From the IMG/VR virus record IMGVR_UViG_3300020383_000006, positions 64,001 through 128,000 of that record: DNA of 64,000 nucleotides; one strand, written 5' to 3'. Position numbers and translations under genes: made by a program. Positions 2,898 through 14,778 of this stretch are shown one piece after another; within the stretch, counting starts at the first letter, position 1; the number at the start of each line of letters is the position of its first letter. This DNA comes from a virus. A model generated the notes under the pieces. The model had not been told where the DNA came from, did no database searches, and saw only the letters and a program-made list of their open reading frames with translations.

Positions 2898-4289
2898 ATG
2901 GACAAATATATTGATGGTGTGAGAGTCATCGTAGCTGAAGAACACCATGATTGTGAACACCTACTTGGTAAATTTTTAGATGAAAGTCATTATGACGTTT
3001 TAATAGACGAAGATTGTGATTTTTACGCGCCACCAGAAAACACTTTATTCGGTGTAGAAGAAACCTCAGAAGAAAAATGTATTTTCAAACTGCGCAAAGG
3101 TTTTTTCAGTATGGAAGAACAACGTGGCGCATATGAAGGGTTACGTGATGCGGCAGTTGCTTCTAACAACCGTGGAATTGCTGCTGGCGACCGTACTGAA
3201 ATGACGGGCAACCGAGTTTTCGTTACTGAACGTCATTTACGTATTTTAGACATGATGATGAATCCTGCTGGTGCTGTTATTGATGATGCCTTTACGGTAG
3301 CTGATGCGGTAGCTGATAAGTCTTGGGGTAATCCTAATTCTAAAAAAGGTGAAGCATGGATTATTCGAGTTGTTGGGGATAACTTTGATTTTGAAAAATG
3401 GGCTGAAGAAACAGTAAAATTATCCCCCAGTGAAATGAATAAGAAAGCACGTGAACTTTCAAAAGGCGTTTCTACTACTACATACGCAAATGAAGTTCAT
3501 TCCGGTATTGCTGGTTGGTTTGACCGTTACCCAAGAATTCCTTTTGGGCGAGCAACTTCTTACACAGCAAACAACCCTGAAAAATTTGCTAAATCTTACC
3601 CTTTTCTACAAAAACTTTCGGATGGATTTTCTAAATTTTTGCCTGAACGTTTCGTTAAACAAAAGAAATGTGCCGACTCATTAGACCCTGCTTTTGTCGT
3701 ACCTGAAACGCCGTTTACTACCCTGACGGTTAATAAAACGTTCCGTACAGCAGCTCACAGGGACGCTGGTGACCTGAAAAAAGGGTTCTCTAACCTTAGC
3801 GTGATCACTAATAAAGAAAAGTGTTACACTGGCGGTTATTTAGTTTTACCTGAGTTCCGTGTAGCTGTAAACATTCGTCCTGGTGACTTATTACTTATTA
3901 ATAACCATGACGGGGTTCATGGTAATACGCCTATTGAAATTGATGATGATGGTGAGCGCGTTTCAGTTGTTTGTTATTTCCGTGAAAATATGTTAGAATT
4001 AGGTTCTAAACCATATGAAGATGCAAGAGCCAAATTTGTTGAACAAAGAAGAAATGATAAAAACCACCCAGAGTGGCGTCCATTGTGGAACGGTATTAGT
4101 CCAGGAATGTTTGAGACTGATGAATGGTACAAATTTCTTTACAACGAAATTGGTGAAGAAGAATTATTAAAATACCATCCAAGGGCAAAAGGTAGCATTG
4201 AAGAATTTGAATCTTGTACTAAAAGAAAGGTACATGGGGATGATGTTTGTAATGGATGTAACAAAATATGTAATGGTCGAGGTGAATAA
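2898..4289 (+). CDS. TET/JBP-family 2-oxoglutarate/Fe(II) dioxygenase (base hydroxylase)
   Basis: FTTLTVNKTFRTAAHRDAGD (HxD), distal HGNT His, and RVSVVCYFRE (2OG-binding Arg), plus SGIAGWFDRYPRIP. Next gene is a glycosyltransferase. Confidence 0.85.
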   Translation: MDKYIDGVRVIVAEEHHDCEHLLGKFLDESHYDVLIDEDCDFYAPPENTLFGVEETSEEKCIFKLRKGFFSMEEQRGAYEGLRDAAVASNNRGIAAGDRTEMTGNRVFVTERHLRILDMMMNPAGAVIDDAFTVADAVADKSWGNPNSKKGEAWIIRVVGDNFDFEKWAEETVKLSPSEMNKKARELSKGVSTTTYANEVHSGIAGWFDRYPRIPFGRATSYTANNPEKFAKSYPFLQKLSDGFSKFLPERFVKQKKCADSLDPAFVVPETPFTTLTVNKTFRTAAHRDAGDLKKGFSNLSVITNKEKCYTGGYLVLPEFRVAVNIRPGDLLLINNHDGVHGNTPIEIDDDGERVSVVCYFRENMLELGSKPYEDARAKFVEQRRNDKNHPEWRPLWNGISPGMFETDEWYKFLYNEIGEEELLKYHPRAKGSIEEFESCTKRKVHGDDVCNGCNKICNGRGE

Positions 4290-5113
4290 TGTTAATTTGT
4301 ATACCAACGTATAAGCGCGAAGAAAACCAAAAATGTTATGAACGTATGCCCGACGAAATTAAACGTCGGGTTTTATTGGCTACTCATTCTGATGAAGTAG
4401 AAAACCTTAAAAAAGCTAACCCAGAAGCAAATGTTGTGGATATTGGAGTCACTGACGGCATCGCTGACGTGAGACAAAGAATACTTAACTACGCAAAATC
4501 ACAAAATGAAGAAAAAGTTTTTATAATGGATGATTCTTGCACATTCAAGAAAAGAGTTAAAATGAAACTTACTGAAATGGGCGCTCAAGATTGGGAAGAA
4601 ATGATTGAAAGGGTTTCAGAAAGGCTAGATGAATACCCTATGGTCGGAATTTCTGACCAAGCCGGAAATAACCGCGTTGAGAAACCGGAATTAGAAAACC
4701 AACGTTCATACAGTTGTTATGGTATCAACGTAGAATTTTTTAAAGAAAACGGCATAAGATTTGATGCTATGTATCAAGAAGATAATGATATCAAGTTTTA
4801 TGAAGATTTTTACGTTATACTGAAATTATTGACTTCAGGGTTTAAGAACTTGGTTATCTATGAATACGCCTTTTCACACGCACACGGCAAAAAGGGCGGT
4901 AACAGTGTATTAAGAAGTAATAATACACATAAAAAATCAATAGATTCTTTGAAAACGTTTTTTCCTAAGTTTGTTGATGTCGTAAAGAAGGAAAACCCAT
5001 CTTGGAAAGCAGGTTTAAATGATGAAGAAAACTTTAGATGGGACGTGAAAATTTCTTGGAAAAAGGCTTTTGAATATGGACAATCTAAAGTAGAAAGCGT
5101 TTCTTTATTTTGA
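4289..5113 (+). CDS. GT-A fold glycosyltransferase, TET/JBP-associated type
   Basis: ICIPTYKR N-terminus, FIMDDS (DxD-like), YEDF, KKGGNS motifs; TAATG overlap with the TET stop codon. Confidence 0.8.
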   Translation: MLICIPTYKREENQKCYERMPDEIKRRVLLATHSDEVENLKKANPEANVVDIGVTDGIADVRQRILNYAKSQNEEKVFIMDDSCTFKKRVKMKLTEMGAQDWEEMIERVSERLDEYPMVGISDQAGNNRVEKPELENQRSYSCYGINVEFFKENGIRFDAMYQEDNDIKFYEDFYVILKLLTSGFKNLVIYEYAFSHAHGKKGGNSVLRSNNTHKKSIDSLKTFFPKFVDVVKKENPSWKAGLNDEENFRWDVKISWKKAFEYGQSKVESVSLF

Positions 5114-9998: not shown

Positions 9999-10544
9999 AT
10001 GTATGAGATATCAGTAAACGTGATGGATCCTAAAAACGTAGAAAACGTCCGGACTTTAGTTCTGGGCGTCCTCTATAAATTACAGGGTCAAGGTCATGAT
10101 ATAGGCAACGAATTCCCTTCCAAAGATAAATATAGGATTAATTTATATTCTGAAAAAGAAGAATCGCTAGAATTAGCGATACAAAAACTTTATGACCATA
10201 AACATTCTCCATTAAGAGGTCACGAAAAAGTTAAAAGTTTTGATTTAGAAATAGAAATATTGGAAGATGACGGTTACTTATTGAACTGTTTGTTTGAAGA
10301 AGAAAAAATTTTTAATCGTCGCTTAACTAATATGCTTTCTACTTCAGCATTTAACCATGAAAAAGATATTCAGGAATTGGAACAAAAAATAAAATCTATC
10401 AATGATTACCTAAGCAATAGCGGTATTATTCATTATAAGAATTTTATGGTACAGTTCATTGAAATGTTGGGTCATAATCAATTATTACCGAACACCGATT
10501 ACGTTAAAGAACGTATGTTTAATAGTAATGAAAACACGCATTAA
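9999..10544 (+). CDS. Hypothetical protein
   Basis: 181-aa ORF with SD AAGG, between gp43 and uvsX. Confidence 0.6.
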   Translation: MYEISVNVMDPKNVENVRTLVLGVLYKLQGQGHDIGNEFPSKDKYRINLYSEKEESLELAIQKLYDHKHSPLRGHEKVKSFDLEIEILEDDGYLLNCLFEEEKIFNRRLTNMLSTSAFNHEKDIQELEQKIKSINDYLSNSGIIHYKNFMVQFIEMLGHNQLLPNTDYVKERMFNSNENTH

Positions 10545-10555
10545 GGAACTTTAGT

Positions 10556-11515
10556 ATGTCTCTAGCTGAAAAATTTGCTAAAAACTCAAAATTGAAAGGT
10601 AGTGGAACGTTTTCTAAAACATTAGAAAAACCAGTGAAACTATATGACACTGGCGTACCAGCATTAAACCTTGCTTATAGCGGTGACCTATTTGGTGGAA
10701 CTAAATCAGGCGTTACTTGTATAGCAGGTAAATCAAAATCATTTAAAACGTTATTTGGGTTGATTGCTTGTAAAGCGTATATGGATGAACACCCTGACGC
10801 ATATATGTTATTTTATGATTCAGAAGGCGGTGCGTCGAAAGAATACTATGAACAAATTGGTATTGATACCGACCGAGTTATTTATCTACCTATCATGAAT
10901 ATTGAGGAACTAAAATTTGATTTAGTTCCTAAACTTGAAGAAATCAAAAAAGAACATGATGAAGCTAAAAAAGAAGAAGATAAACCAAGGTTCATCGTAT
11001 TCTGTGACTCAATCGGAAACTTAGCATCAATTAAAGAAGTAACTGATGCAATGAATGACAATTCAGCTACTGATATGGGTATCAGAGCTAAAACACTAAA
11101 AGCATTATTCCGTATCATGACACCTTATTTCAAGCGTTGTGAAATACAAATGATTGCTATTATGCACACGTATGATGAAATGGCTGCTATGGGTGCACCA
11201 AAACAAATTATGAGCGGTGGTTGTGTTACTGAAGGAACCCGTATTATGCTTGAAAACGGGGATTTTGTAGAAATACAAAATATCCAAGAAGGTGACATGG
11301 TAATGTCAAAAGAAGGTCCTAGAAAAGTAGACCATATTTGGGATCCTGAAACTCTTGAAGAAGGAAACCCAGAATGCTTGCGTTTAACTTTCGATGATGG
11401 ATATCAAGTAGAATGTTCCGAGAAACATAGATTCTTAGTTAAAAATGAAAACGGTGATGAAGAATGGGTTATGGCTAAGGATTTAACTGAAGGAATGGAC
11501 TTAATTTCTATTTAA
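10556..11515 (+). CDS. uvsX: UvsX recombinase N-terminal part (222 aa) fused to split-intein N-fragment (97 aa)
   Basis: DTGVPALNLAYSG, Walker A AGKSKSFKT, FYDSEGG, DSIGNLAS. After MSGG comes intein block A CVTEGTRIML and block B ECSEKHRF, then stop. Confidence 0.93.
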   Translation: MSLAEKFAKNSKLKGSGTFSKTLEKPVKLYDTGVPALNLAYSGDLFGGTKSGVTCIAGKSKSFKTLFGLIACKAYMDEHPDAYMLFYDSEGGASKEYYEQIGIDTDRVIYLPIMNIEELKFDLVPKLEEIKKEHDEAKKEEDKPRFIVFCDSIGNLASIKEVTDAMNDNSATDMGIRAKTLKALFRIMTPYFKRCEIQMIAIMHTYDEMAAMGAPKQIMSGGCVTEGTRIMLENGDFVEIQNIQEGDMVMSKEGPRKVDHIWDPETLEEGNPECLRLTFDDGYQVECSEKHRFLVKNENGDEEWVMAKDLTEGMDLISI

Positions 11516-11522
11516 TTTGAAT

Positions 11523-11583
11523 TTTAAACCTCTAGGATAATAAATACTTTATGCGAAGAGTACAAAAGTCCTAGAGGTTTAAA
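11523..11583 (+). promoter_or_regulatory. 15-bp inverted repeat sequestering the endonuclease RBS, with late promoter AATAAATA in the loop
   Basis: TTTAAACCTCTAGGA (11523-11537) pairs with TCCTAGAGGTTTAAA (11569-11583), which contains GAGG and the A of ATG; AATAAATA at 11539-11546. Confidence 0.8.
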
Positions 11584-12746
11584 TGAATATAGTTTATAAA
11601 ATAACTTTTTTAGATAGAAAAGAAAATAACATATACCCATATATCTATATAGGTTCTAAATCAAATTGTAATTTTGTTGATGGTAAAATTATAGATAGAA
11701 ACGGTAATAGTTATTATGGAAGTTCAACTTGGCCAAATTATTATGAAATAGTAAAAAAGGGTAATCTGAAAATTGAATTATTATTTCATTCAGAAAATTA
11801 TAATGAATGTTTAATGAAAGAAAAAGAATTACATTTAAAAGAAGATGTTGTAGCGAACCCTGAATATTTTAATAAGACAATAGCTTCTATAAGTAATTAC
11901 TCTGACCCTAGTTATGCAACTTATAAACATACATTATATGGTAAAATAGTTAGGTTGCCTAGAAACCATCCGTTAGTCGAAAACGGTACTTATGTTGGGG
12001 TTACAAAAGGGGATACAGTTAAACATTCAGGCAATGGTTCTAGGTTTGGAATGTTTAATTCTTTTTATGGAAAAACGCATAGTGAACAAACTAAACAAAA
12101 ATTAAGAGAACATAATTTAGGCAAAGTTCATTCTGAAGAATCAAGAAGAAAAATGTCTAAATCTAGGAAAGGTAAAAAGAAGACTAAAGAACACAAAGAA
12201 AAGATAGGTAGGAAAGGTATGGTTAATTTTGTTAACGTAAAAACAAAAGAAACCATTAGGGTGTATAGGGAAGAATTTGAGTTGAGGGATGACAAAAAAG
12301 ATTGGTTGACCCAAGCAAAATATAATTCTATCTATAACAAACCTGAAGAAATTATTTGTGAGTATTGTGGAATGAGCTTATCTCCTGGTAATTATTCTCG
12401 GTTTCATGGTAAAAATTGTTCTAAAGTAAAAGTCAGAGAATATAACCCATTCAAAAAATTACTGGAAGGTAAAGGGAAAAACAAAACTATTGAGGAGGTT
12501 CTTTATTTCTTTGATGAGATTGTAAATTTTTTAAAAGAAAATAAAAAGCCTGAAAATATGAGTAGTAAAAGGTATTCATTAGAAGTTTTAATACCTTTTA
12601 CAAAAAATAAATTCGGTGATGTAGAACCCTTTTACGCTGTGATAAAAAGAGTATATAATTCATTTCGAGAAGGGAAAATTGGTGAAGAGACATTTTCATA
12701 TTTCTATAAATGGAAACAAAAGGTAGATTTTAATGCTATTAAGTAA
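11583..12746 (+). CDS. GIY-YIG homing endonuclease (Seg-like) with NUMOD3 repeats and zinc finger
   Basis: IVY...YIYIGSK, YYGSS, EYFNK; FYGKTHSEQTKQKL / GKVHSEESRRKMS; CEYCG...HGKNC. Visibly more AT-rich than its flanks. Confidence 0.88.
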   Translation: MNIVYKITFLDRKENNIYPYIYIGSKSNCNFVDGKIIDRNGNSYYGSSTWPNYYEIVKKGNLKIELLFHSENYNECLMKEKELHLKEDVVANPEYFNKTIASISNYSDPSYATYKHTLYGKIVRLPRNHPLVENGTYVGVTKGDTVKHSGNGSRFGMFNSFYGKTHSEQTKQKLREHNLGKVHSEESRRKMSKSRKGKKKTKEHKEKIGRKGMVNFVNVKTKETIRVYREEFELRDDKKDWLTQAKYNSIYNKPEEIICEYCGMSLSPGNYSRFHGKNCSKVKVREYNPFKKLLEGKGKNKTIEEVLYFFDEIVNFLKENKKPENMSSKRYSLEVLIPFTKNKFGDVEPFYAVIKRVYNSFREGKIGEETFSYFYKWKQKVDFNAIK

Positions 12747-13293
12747 AATTGAAAAAATTGGTAAGCGTCCTGTTTTCGACATATCCGTTAATGGTTCACA
12801 AAATTATGTTTTAGAGAACGGGGTTATAAGTCATAATACCGGACCACTATATTCCTCAGACCAAGTTTTCATCGTTCGCAAGCGCCAAATCAAAGAAGGC
12901 AAAGAAATTATTGGTTGGGAATTTATTCTTGATATTGAAAAATCAAGAACGATTCGCGAAAAATCATCAATCCCATTTGAAGTGAAATACGGGGAAGGAT
13001 TAAATCGTTTTTCTGCTCTACTTGACTTAGCTATTGCTTCGGGTCACGTGATTAAACCTAAGATGGGTTGGTATTCTCGTGCTAACGTAGAAGATGATAA
13101 AAATTGGCGTAGAAAAGAAACTTCTTCAGATGAATTTTGGGATCCTATTCTTAATGACCAAACGTTTGTCGATGCCGTTAAAAATATGTATCGTTTGGAT
13201 GGTGGCGACCCAATTCTACAAAAGAAACTTGATAATTTAGTTCAAGATGAAGATTTTGACCCTGAAACAGGTGAAATCTTCGATAAAGAATAA
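12733..13293 (+). CDS. uvsX: Split-intein C-fragment (35 aa) fused to UvsX C-terminal part (151 aa)
   Basis: VFDISV (block F), NYVLENGVISHN|T (block G), then TGPLYSSDQVFIVRKRQIKEG, EKSRTIREKS, KPKMGWY. Has its own SD (AAGGT). Confidence 0.93.
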   Translation: MLLSKIEKIGKRPVFDISVNGSQNYVLENGVISHNTGPLYSSDQVFIVRKRQIKEGKEIIGWEFILDIEKSRTIREKSSIPFEVKYGEGLNRFSALLDLAIASGHVIKPKMGWYSRANVEDDKNWRRKETSSDEFWDPILNDQTFVDAVKNMYRLDGGDPILQKKLDNLVQDEDFDPETGEIFDKE

Positions 13294-13299
13294 ATAAAT

Positions 13300-13338
13300 C
13301 ACTTTTAATGAAATGGGCGGTAGGTTAAACTATCGCCC
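13300..13338 (+). promoter_or_regulatory. Hairpin plus putative promoter upstream of gp41
   Basis: CACTTTTAA...TAAACT with the same spacing as upstream of gp43; stem GGGCGGTAG/CTATCGCCC. Confidence 0.45.
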
Positions 13339-13371
13339 TCTAACTATAATAATGAGCGCGAAGGATGATTA

Positions 13372-14778
13372 ATGGTTTCTTTTGAAGACACTCTGTTTAA
13401 ATCTCTTTTGTATGATAGCAATTATGTTAGAAAAGTTTTACCGTACCTTGATGATTCATATTTTGACGGTAGCAGAAAAACATTATTCAATATCTACAAA
13501 AATTTATTTGATGAGTATAATGAAGTCCCGACCCTTGAAGCAATAGGCGTAGTCTTACAAAAAAGTCCAGTCGGGGAATCTGAATTTGAGGAAATTGCTG
13601 AACTACTTACAACATGCCATAAAAATAGAAAAGATTTACCAAATACAGAATTCCTAGTTAAGGAAACTGAAGAGTATTGTAGAGATAAAAAATTATACGA
13701 TTCAATTTACCAATCCATTTCGATTTTAGAAGATGAAAAGTCAAACAAAAATTCTATACCTGATTTATTAGAAGATGCGTTGTCTATATCGTTTGACACT
13801 TCTATTGGTATGGATTTTTTCGAAGATGCGGAAAAGCGATATGAAGCCTATACAGCTGAAGACGCAAGAATTCCTTTTCCACTTAACGCATTAAACCGTT
13901 TATCCAATGGCGGTCACAAAAAGAAGTCATTGAGTTGCGTGTTAGCAGGAACAAACACGGGTAAATCTGCTCTTATGTGTTATCTTTGTGGTGAGTTTTT
14001 AAGAAGAGGATTAAATGTACTGTATATTTCTTTAGAAATGGCTGAAGAGGATGTTCAAGAACGTATTGAAGCTAACTTACTGAACGTTTCTACTGATGAA
14101 CTTAAAAAGTTGACTAAAGAACAGTACATGGGTAAAATTAGGAATTTACAAAGTAAAACAAACGGCAAATTTGTTGCTAAAGAATACCCTACCTCGGCTG
14201 GTCACGTTGGTCATTTTAGACACTTGATAAAAGAACTGAAACAAAAGAAAAAGTTTGAACCTGATTTCATATTTGTAGATTACATTAATATTTGCGCATC
14301 TTATCGTATTAGTGCCCAAGGTAGTAACTCATACAGTTACATTAAGGCGATTGCCGAAGAACTGCGTGGATTGTCTATGGAAATGAATACGCCTATTATG
14401 ACGGCAACTCAGGTTAATCGAAGCGGTATGGATAAATCACCTGAAATGACTGATACTTCAGATTCATTCGGTTTGCCTATGTCACTTGATTTCTTTATAT
14501 CATTGTCCCAAAATGAGGTTCACCAAGAAAACGGTCAACAATTAATCAATTGTATAAAAACCCGTTGGGGTAACAAATCAAAAATTAAACCTGAGTTAGT
14601 TAATATTGATTGGGATAAAATGCGATATAGTGATATTGATAGCGCAACTTCGGTTGCTTCTAAAGTAGGCAACAATAAGCCTAAAACAAGCAAAGGTTCT
14701 AATGAGAGTTCTACTGGCAGTTCATTGAGAGATAAAAAGAAACGTAAAGGTTCTTCAGCAGAATTTCAATGGGAATAG
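13372..14778 (+). CDS. 41: Replicative DnaB-like helicase, T4 gp41-like
   Basis: Walker A AGTNTGKS, YISLEMAEE, KEYPT, VDYINIC, KAIAEELRGL, TATQVNRSG. Confidence 0.95.
   Translation: MVSFEDTLFKSLLYDSNYVRKVLPYLDDSYFDGSRKTLFNIYKNLFDEYNEVPTLEAIGVVLQKSPVGESEFEEIAELLTTCHKNRKDLPNTEFLVKETEEYCRDKKLYDSIYQSISILEDEKSNKNSIPDLLEDALSISFDTSIGMDFFEDAEKRYEAYTAEDARIPFPLNALNRLSNGGHKKKSLSCVLAGTNTGKSALMCYLCGEFLRRGLNVLYISLEMAEEDVQERIEANLLNVSTDELKKLTKEQYMGKIRNLQSKTNGKFVAKEYPTSAGHVGHFRHLIKELKQKKKFEPDFIFVDYINICASYRISAQGSNSYSYIKAIAEELRGLSMEMNTPIMTATQVNRSGMDKSPEMTDTSDSFGLPMSLDFFISLSQNEVHQENGQQLINCIKTRWGNKSKIKPELVNIDWDKMRYSDIDSATSVASKVGNNKPKTSKGSNESSTGSSLRDKKKRKGSSAEFQWE

Follow-up and report, generated by a model that had tools for sequence, protein, structure and literature searches.

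Fractured genes, in which a naturally split intein and a free-standing homing endonuclease gene (HEG) lie within one host gene, were described at gp41, NrdA, NrdJ, IMPDH, DnaE, ligase, and terminase loci from the Global Ocean Sampling (GOS) metagenomes (Dassa et al. 2009, NAR 37:2560, PMC2677866). The locus analyzed here has the same design in uvsX, the recombinase gene of T4-like phages, and belongs to an uncultured marine phage of that group. It lies in the window, by which is meant the whole stretch of 64,000 nt that was examined (positions 64,001 to 128,000 of IMG/VR virus record IMGVR_UViG_3300020383_000006). Three plus-strand open reading frames (ORFs) make up the locus: ORF A encodes the first part of UvsX joined to the N-terminal half of an intein (IntN), ORF B a homing endonuclease of the GIY-YIG class, and ORF C the C-terminal intein half (IntC) joined to the rest of UvsX. 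With a probability of roughly 85%, the uvsX gene is fractured in the way that Dassa and coworkers described, by a split intein plus an HEG, from which UvsX would be restored by protein trans-splicing. Judged by its sequence, the element is real and probably functional.

Inteins have long been known in mycobacterial RecA, where they are contiguous and bacterial. A "VidaL UvsX" is reportedly one of the atypically split Lake Vida inteins, a group associated with the names of Neugebauer et al. in 2017 and Burton et al. in 2020. In the VidaL inteins, IntN is ultra-short at about 15–16 aa (PMC13014065), while the intein in the window is split canonically into pieces of 97 and 35 aa. The nearest solved structure to IntN is that of the gp41-1 intein (6qaz, E = 4.6e-5 over 64 residues; see also 6riz). 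The two share a Cys at intein position 1 (Cys1), a canonical split, a home in a fractured phage gene, and the pattern C-S-E-x-H in block B, where IntN aligns with the C-S-E-E-H of gp41-1. The gp41-1 intein differs in its host protein, its similarity to IntN is distant, and the first residue of its C-extein (position +1) is Ser. It is the fastest split intein characterized, and its reported half-time is about 5 s (PMC13014065).

Phage T4 provides the nearest described relatives of the endonuclease. T4 SegG is homologous to the N-terminal catalytic domain of ORF B, and T4 SegA is a free-standing GIY-YIG enzyme whose gene adjoins uvsX and which cuts within uvsX (PMC2988022), so that uvsX is a known target of this class of nuclease. 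The seg genes of T4 differ in being intergenic and interrupting no gene, and the uvsX gene of T4 has no intein. In phage Aeh1, by contrast, the mobE HEG does lie within an essential gene of a T4-like phage, nrdA, behind a hairpin that hides its ribosome-binding site and is combined with a late promoter. As PMC2677866 summarizes that case, the NrdA pieces function noncovalently and no intein is involved.

The closest match in overall plan remains the set of loci in PMC2677866. There, as in the window, an N-extein with IntN, a short spacer, a free-standing HEG, and IntC with the C-extein follow one another on the same strand. IntN measures 88–105 aa and IntC 33–54 aa in those loci, against 97 and 35 aa here; the HEG overlaps the downstream gene by 6–69 bp there and by 14 bp here; and the spacer is 27–51 nt there and 67 nt here. 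Hairpins in the 5' untranslated region of the HEG were found in 15 of the 16 loci, ten of them with TATAAATA, and the same feature is present in the window. GIY-YIG or Vsr-like cargo and an origin in marine T4-like phages are also common to both. The differences are that UvsX is no host protein in that study, figuring merely as the neighbor of gp41, that the +1 residue is Thr here, and that for uvsX all the stages of gene breaking can be seen.

The two parts of UvsX are unmistakable. T4 UvsX (PDB 3io5) aligns with ORF A residues 1–222 up to chain position 186 (E = 1.7e-45) and with the C-terminal part (E = 6.9e-37), where residue T36 of ORF C falls on chain position T187; on ORF C residues 36–186 the Pfam model PF21134 (T4_UVSX_C) scores 60.6 bits, against a cut-off of 27. 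The predicted spliced product has 373 aa with the junction MSGG/TGPLYSS (the slash marks the point of insertion), and nothing is missing or duplicated between positions 186 and 187. The same point emerges from tblastn searches of 62 viral contigs with an intein-less uvsX, in which the match to the N-extein stops at residue 222 and the match to the C-extein starts at the next nucleotide. A first-pass annotation, made from the letters of the sequence alone, had listed the same three ORFs at the same positions and on the same strand, and had proposed this seamless product; the adjacency of the two residues in 3io5 and the 62 intein-less genes bear it out. Its placing of the site in loop L2 needs adjustment. 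The neighborhood is that of L2, but G186/T187 of T4 UvsX (3io5 chain numbering) corresponds to GG/N in Escherichia coli RecA, just past the loop at its C-terminal edge rather than inside it.

Both intein halves are recognized by models of their own. IntN (ORF A residues 223–319, starting CVTEGT) scores 29.1 bits with NCBIfam model TIGR01445, for which the cut-off is 24.5, and IntC (ORF C residues 1–35, ending SHN) scores 26.1 with TIGR01443, for which it is 15.6, in accord with the two halves first proposed. Hint-type Pfam models match the halves as well, below their gathering scores. Cys1 is C223 of ORF A, directly after the last UvsX residue, and is invariant in 42 of 42 N-halves. Block B reads S288-E-K-H291, with H291 invariant and S288 present in at least 90% of the same 42. 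On the other side, H34 and N35 of ORF C are invariant in 30 of 30 C-halves, and the +1 residue is Thr in 24 of these 30 and Ser in the other six. These signatures support the assignment to the canonical class 1 naturally split inteins, with all splicing residues present. The pairing of Cys1 with Thr at +1 had been thought unusual, a view that does not hold: the same pair occurs in 19 cultured phages, and Thr belongs to the three nucleophiles that are canonical at +1 (PMC13014065).

The halves also appear suited to finding each other. The net charge of IntN is -15 (the family mean is -11.7), and that of IntC residues 1–14 is +3. An acidic IntN with a basic start of IntC is the polarity familiar from DnaE-type split inteins. 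Structure prediction of the complex, with a few extein residues left on each half, gave a score of 0.63 against 0.02 for the best control; a mark of 0.63 is attained by 58 of 80 solved complexes and by 2 of 110 mismatched pairs. Contacts agreed between runs to at least 94%, and the partner reached a predicted local distance difference test (pLDDT) value of at least 66. The two halves are thus predicted to associate into one HINT fold, with the reservation that the score expresses likeness to solved split inteins rather than independent proof of binding, because split inteins are among the solved structures. Together they come to 132 aa, and contiguous homologous mini-inteins at the identical uvsX site, found in six metagenome clusters (among the best 120) and in one further related locus (L009), have 129–136 aa. 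Since contiguous homologues of equal size share its site, the intein in the window can be seen as a mini-intein broken where endonuclease domains normally sit.

Table 1. Positions of the features of the fractured uvsX locus in the window and, in the last three rows, of the three-piece uvsX gene of locus L026 (IMGVR_UViG_3300008255_001543), in the coordinates of that locus.
Feature	Positions	Strand	Content or basis
ORF A	10556–11515	+	319 aa; UvsX residues 1–222 plus 97-aa IntN
ORF B	11583–12746	+	387 aa; SegG-like GIY-YIG/NUMOD3 homing endonuclease
ORF C	12733–13293	+	186 aa; 35-aa IntC plus UvsX C-part
uvsX N-extein, ending ...QIMSGG	10556–11221	+	PDB 3io5 and phrog_97 matches
IntN, 97 aa, with Cys1 and block B S288-x-x-H291 (ORF A numbering)	11222–11512	+	TIGR01445; 6qaz match
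Stop codon of ORF A	11513–11515	+	Sequence
RNA hairpin, 16-bp stem	11523–11583	+	Folding, free energy -25.8 kcal/mol
Free-standing homing endonuclease gene, 387 aa	11583–12746	+	segG homology; NUMOD3; phrog_314 and phrog_7504
IntC, 35 aa, ending ...NGVISHN, with ATG at 12733	12733–12837	+	TIGR01443
uvsX C-extein, 151 aa from Thr+1 (TGPLYSS...), and stop codon	12838–13293	+	3io5; PF21134
L026 N-extein and IntN-a (site a, after ...NHTYKEQ)	3082–3966
L026 IntC-a, 11-aa extein (SMFPKDIVSGG), and IntN-b	3993–4520
L026 IntC-b and C-extein	4474–5010

A gp43-type polymerase lies on one side of uvsX and a gp41-type helicase on the other. Between the polymerase and uvsX there is also a 181-aa ORF (9999–10544) with no PHROG match at E ≤ 1e-5. 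The source is a metagenome-derived virus record of 145.5 kb that is about 90% complete. No second uvsX and no further intein were found in it, PF14890 matching only the two halves in the window.

The intein also occurs in phages that are in culture. Searches with IntN found it in 25 GenBank records of 19 cultured T4-like phages, at the same site of uvsX and with the same Cys1/Thr+1 pair; the hosts of these phages belong to Pseudomonas, Shewanella, Proteus, Vibrio, Enterobacter, Salmonella, Klebsiella, Escherichia, Shigella, and Yersinia. Examples are TG1 (vB_YenM_TG1, KP202158), vB_PmiM_Pm5461 (KP890823), HY03, PspYZU05, and Thanatos-1. Their loci have the site M-x-G-G/C...H-N/T-G, an IntN 38–50% identical to that in the window, a homologous IntC, and a Seg-like HEG with NUMOD3. 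For TG1 and Pm5461, a gene-by-gene comparison showed that the three genes are arranged alike, that the intein occupies the identical site with Cys1/Thr+1, and that the endonuclease is related. The cultured carriers infect enterobacteria, Pseudomonas, Shewanella, and Vibrio, whereas the window comes from a marine phage with a longer endonuclease, and in the databases their loci are annotated merely as two "RecA-like recombination protein" genes and a homing endonuclease. Both halves have families in PHROGs v4 (phrog_8337 and phrog_18112).

The suggestion that the locus was uncatalogued therefore fails at the level of sequence databases, in which homologous loci are present for these phages and in PHROGs. 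The annotation itself had named an identical locus already on record as what would take away the novelty; the loci on record are homologous, at 38–50% identity, rather than identical. In the literature, no published description of a uvsX split intein was found. At least 19 cultured phages thus carry the same locus without any remark on it, and what is new here is a host gene for which no paper was found. The first-pass annotation was right about the fractured uvsX, the split intein, the free-standing GIY-YIG gene, and the seamless junction, and went too far on rarity and novelty.

How the relatives come to light depends on the method. A megablast of the locus against phages gave no match, and a search of viral contigs with ORF A alone gave no relative, whereas an alignment-based scan did find relatives; these related uvsX loci are given L labels below (TG1 is L001), and metagenome proteins or clusters P labels. 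The closest metagenome proteins are P0033, P0041, and P0129; genomic context was read from IMG/VR loci. Exteins and intein halves are 40–66% identical across many phage lineages. Among the best 120 metagenome clusters by N-half, 85 are split N-halves, about 29 lack the intein, and 6 have it in contiguous form. Relatives of the gene therefore display all the stages of gene breaking, from intein-less genes through a contiguous mini-intein to split genes with an HEG and split genes without one.

On a tree of 115 N-extein sequences, built with FastTree only, presence and absence of the intein must have changed at least 11 times, at least seven of them forced by supported branches. The nearest N-extein relatives of the window are intein-less, at 76% identity, and the smallest supported clade that contains it has eight intein-less and four split alleles. 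This looks like a mobile element that has been repeatedly gained and lost. Five intein-less relatives (P0041, P0050, P0052, P0063, and P0085) carry Thr, Asn, or Gln at the equivalent of position +1 (GG-T-G, GG-N-G, or GG-Q-G), and GG-T-G and GG-N-G alleles are seen in P0042 and P0041. Alleles with Asn or Gln would be unable to splice unless this codon is co-converted during homing.

What lies between the halves varies even more than the presence of the intein. The cargo may be a Seg-like GIY-YIG gene, an HNH gene with NUMOD3, a weakly Vsr/DUF559-like gene, a 497-aa ORF, remnants, or nothing. Seg-like GIY-YIG genes are seen in L016 and L017, the HNH gene with NUMOD3 in L067, and the 497-aa ORF, which belongs to no known family, in L018; cargo ORFs of L010, L011, and L022 give weak Vsr/DUF559/MTES_1575-like matches below cut-off. 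Decayed cargo takes the form of a fragmented HNH gene in L015 and of an 85-aa remnant in L012. In L021 a NUMOD remnant is joined in frame to the C-half, in L008 there is a 55-aa ORF and an endonuclease-tail motif on the N-half, and in L013 the gap is empty.

In the window, the cargo is an intact and long endonuclease gene. Residues 1–101 of ORF B are 36% identical to an annotated T4-type SegG (tblastn, E = 1e-7), and V4-Y5, Y22-I23-G24, E80, and N97 are invariant when ORF B is aligned with SegG and two cognate enzymes. Pfam finds two NUMOD3 motifs at residues ~165–200 (E = 5e-10, above the cut-off). No NCBIfam model and no meaningful PDB sequence match was found for the endonuclease class, and since the Pfam GIY-YIG model does not match either, the GIY-YIG assignment rests on homology to the Seg subfamily; at that level, the class proposed at first reading is right, given the SegG homology and the shared motif residues. 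The layout is that of a GIY-YIG domain (~1–100), the NUMOD3 region, a C-x-x-C...H-x-x-x-C motif, and then a C-terminal stretch of ~120 aa.

This last stretch sets ORF B apart, as its 387 aa compare with about 200–300 aa in homologues, a difference of 90–190 aa. The C-terminal ~120 aa (~265–387; nucleotides 12375–12743) are absent from the homologues, many of which end at the C-x-x-C...H-x-x-x-C motif. For these residues there was no Pfam or PDB match, and the ESM Atlas gave no usable feature, all structural rows having template modeling (TM) scores <0.5.

The annotation of the TG1 relative also deserves comment. The 201-aa coding sequence labeled "GIY-YIG homing endonuclease" (L001:2497–2898; KP202158 20711–21112) aligns only with residues 112–262 of ORF B. 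Homology to the catalytic domain (ORF B residues 1–122) lies mostly in the unannotated gap upstream, so that the TG1 gene is either mis-started or frameshifted.

The short regions between the ORFs carry the kind of regulatory signals expected of a fractured gene. The hairpin listed in Table 1 is formed by the 67-nt spacer that separates ORF A from ORF B; it has z = -6.2, and none of 200 shuffled sequences folds as well. Its 3' arm spans a GAGG Shine–Dalgarno sequence (11574–11577) and the A of the ATG of ORF B. In the loop is AATAAATA (11539–11546), which matches the T4 late promoter TATAAATA at 7 of 8 positions. Two related loci with HEGs of other families have similarly built hairpins ahead of these genes: L067 (HNH), where z is -6.0 and the loop contains TATAAATA without a mismatch, and L022 (Vsr-like), where z is -5.4. 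At the other end of the endonuclease gene, the overlap with the start of ORF C covers 14 nt (12733–12746), and a possible Shine–Dalgarno sequence for ORF C is AAGG at 12720–12723. The function proposed for such hairpins by Dassa et al. (PMC2677866), after Edgell's work on Aeh1 mobE, is to delay translation of the endonuclease until late transcripts appear that lack the 5' arm.

Independent sequence data bear on the integrity of the locus and on its evolution. At least half of its sampled words occur in each of seven runs from four marine studies. In one DNA run, contigs span 10906–11844 and 12586–13038 with zero differences, and in a DNA run from another study (X4), contigs span 10579–11773 and 11749–13500 with 40 differences and the same layout, which makes X4 a variant strain diverged by ~1.5% from the window. 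No joint that skips any part of the locus was found in two DNA and two RNA-library runs, and no Rfam match to an intron up to E = 1 over 10300–13500; joining at the DNA or RNA level, through an assembly error or an intron, had been named at the outset as what could overturn the interpretation.

Of the nucleotides changed in X4, 12 are in the intein and 10 of these are synonymous, the single replacement being V26I; synonymous changes make up 18 of 21 in the exteins and 3 of 6 in the endonuclease. On these small numbers, the intein appears to evolve like its host protein, under purifying selection. The 40 differences are not spread evenly but cluster near the intein–extein junctions (11083–11146, 11213–11215, 12807–12837, and 12879–12900); one patch has 12 in 64 nt, and another, at the 3' end of IntC, has 8 in 31 nt. 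The change AGC>TCT at 11213–11215 is a synonymous switch of codon family at Ser220, which precedes the insertion site by two codons. A mosaic of this kind would be in keeping with gene conversion around a homing site.

The RNA-library contigs of X1 and X9, both from one study, lack ~11545–11996 and resume at 11988 and 11997, and a terminator-like hairpin (11970–11986) lies just before the point where they resume. Because these data are contigs and the stretch is AT-rich (22–26% G+C), the gap says nothing about transcription or processing. In one X9 contig (depth ~10), moreover, the A6 run at 12288–12293 of the endonuclease gene is longer by one A. This would shift the frame and may be a sequencing or slippage error or else a broken allele.

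A scenario that accommodates these features can be outlined. A mini-intein would first have inserted in frame at the GG/TG motif conserved in the recombinase, where the L2 region has its C-terminal edge, and a free-standing Seg-type GIY-YIG HEG would then have broken it into two genes. The phage would make UvsX(1–222)–IntN and IntC–UvsX(223–373), whose intein halves, IntN being acidic and IntC basic at its start, would associate to give the HINT fold. Cys1, the block B Ser-x-x-His, the terminal His-Asn, and Thr+1 would then carry out protein trans-splicing and release a seamless 373-aa UvsX. In read-through early and middle transcripts, the hairpin would hide the ribosome-binding site of the endonuclease gene; the late-promoter-like element in the loop would give rise to transcripts that lack the 5' arm, so that the nuclease would be made late. 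During mixed infection, its targets would be uvsX alleles without the cassette, which would acquire a copy of it when the cut is repaired. We infer the splicing, the timing of the nuclease, and its cleavage target from these sequence features and from the parallels cited.

The first-pass annotation remarked that the element parasitizes the very recombinase on which its homing would depend. This is a fair description, as T4 homing requires UvsX or, in its place, the RecA of the host (PMC2988022). It does not amount to a paradox, because in a mixed infection the donor genome would supply spliced UvsX.

Several points weigh against this interpretation. Splicing activity is predicted from conservation only, and no report of a spliced protein from the window's intein or from any uvsX split intein was found in the literature. 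Block B has Ser where Thr is commoner. The test of selection is based on only 40 differences. The late-promoter motif is inexact at 7 of 8 positions, and its consensus is that of T4, which may not be that of this phage. The Pfam GIY-YIG model misses residues 1–110 of ORF B even at E = 10. Finally, if translation of ORF B is blocked early, the stoichiometric supply of the C-half is left unexplained, as the Shine–Dalgarno sequence AAGG of ORF C is weak.

Among other explanations, the one that deserves most attention is that UvsX works as two pieces without splicing, the intein halves serving as a noncovalent clamp or being dead for splicing, so that the recombinase would be a heterodimer comparable to the NrdA of Aeh1 with mobE. 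A gene split by an HEG can keep its function with two polypeptides and no intein (Friedrich et al. 2007, cited by PMC2677866 and PMC10448857), and the predicted association of IntN with IntC would suit a clamp just as well as it suits a splicing fold. A clamp, however, would have no use for the residues needed only for the chemistry, namely Cys1, the block B His, the His-Asn pair, and Thr or Ser at +1, and these are near-invariant across dozens of diverged homologues. A 132-aa domain retained at the edge of L2, a region that binds DNA, would also probably disturb a recombinase that forms filaments. This arrangement is improbable on balance. Still less credit can be given to a decaying locus, in which insertion of the endonuclease gene inactivated uvsX and the phage falls back on host RecA or another recombinase. 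The use of host RecA in T4 homing (PMC2988022) and the fragmented or remnant endonuclease ORFs of related loci (L008, L012, L015, and L021) would be in keeping with it, but in these loci decay is confined to the cargo and spares the intein and the exteins. In the window, moreover, the exteins and intein halves are intact ORFs that appear to be under purifying selection, their identity across lineages is 40–66%, and the 145.5-kb record offers no second uvsX to take over.

It is also scarcely conceivable that the interruption is an artefact or is removed at the level of nucleic acids, whether through mis-assembly, a self-splicing intron, or a contiguous form of the DNA. The origin of the window in a metagenome-derived contig and the RNA-library contigs without 11545–11996, a gap that cannot be interpreted, might raise the question. 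The answer comes from two independent DNA studies, one of them with the strain diverged by ~1.5%, whose contigs bridge both ORF A/ORF B and ORF B/ORF C, from the runs with their lack of joints, and from Rfam, which gives no match at E = 1. The flanks of the cargo are, besides, intein halves homologous to contiguous inteins, and cultured phages that were sequenced independently have the same layout. A fractured uvsX restored by trans-splicing thus remains the explanation that best accounts for the locus.

A second intein site was observed in uvsX genes of the wider family. Site a lies 11–15 residues upstream of the site used in the window (site b), after an H-T-Y-E motif. L087 (2788–5076) and P0016 have an intein at site a only. 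In L026 (3082–5010), uvsX is divided among three genes with split inteins at both sites (Table 1) and has an endonuclease gene in neither gap; because both sites are split, its UvsX could be assembled only if two split inteins acted at a distance of 11 residues from each other. An exhaustive search found 14 clusters (50% identity) with double occupancy, recognized by the pattern of HN, 11–15 aa, and GG/C. There are six stand-alone middle pieces of 137–175 aa (P0154, P0157, P0167, P0195, P0220, and P0252); in five clusters site a is split and site b contiguous, and in one site a is contiguous and site b split. Apart from the middle pieces, the proteins concerned are P0160, P0162, P0182, P0200, and P0224 (322–337 aa) and P0155. 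A tentative idea, possible although the odds are somewhat against it, is that the site-b family trans-splices efficiently and is orthogonal to DnaE and gp41-1, and that some phages make UvsX from three polypeptides by two orthogonal reactions. If true, the inteins of site a and site b would be a natural orthogonal pair that has evolved together and could serve to ligate proteins from three pieces.

With the copy in the window, a family that was already represented in sequence databases gains a marine member whose endonuclease is intact and unusually long, but no new principle is introduced. Protein engineers could draw on many diverged canonical split inteins of this family, which have Thr or Ser at +1, small Gly-rich flanks, and homologues in cultured coliphages. 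With every stage of gene breaking preserved among close relatives, uvsX should be a good natural system for understanding how fractured genes originate and spread. UvsX is the enzyme that underlies recombination-dependent replication and homing itself, and a core recombination enzyme of T4-like phages would, in many lineages, be made by stitching two proteins together.

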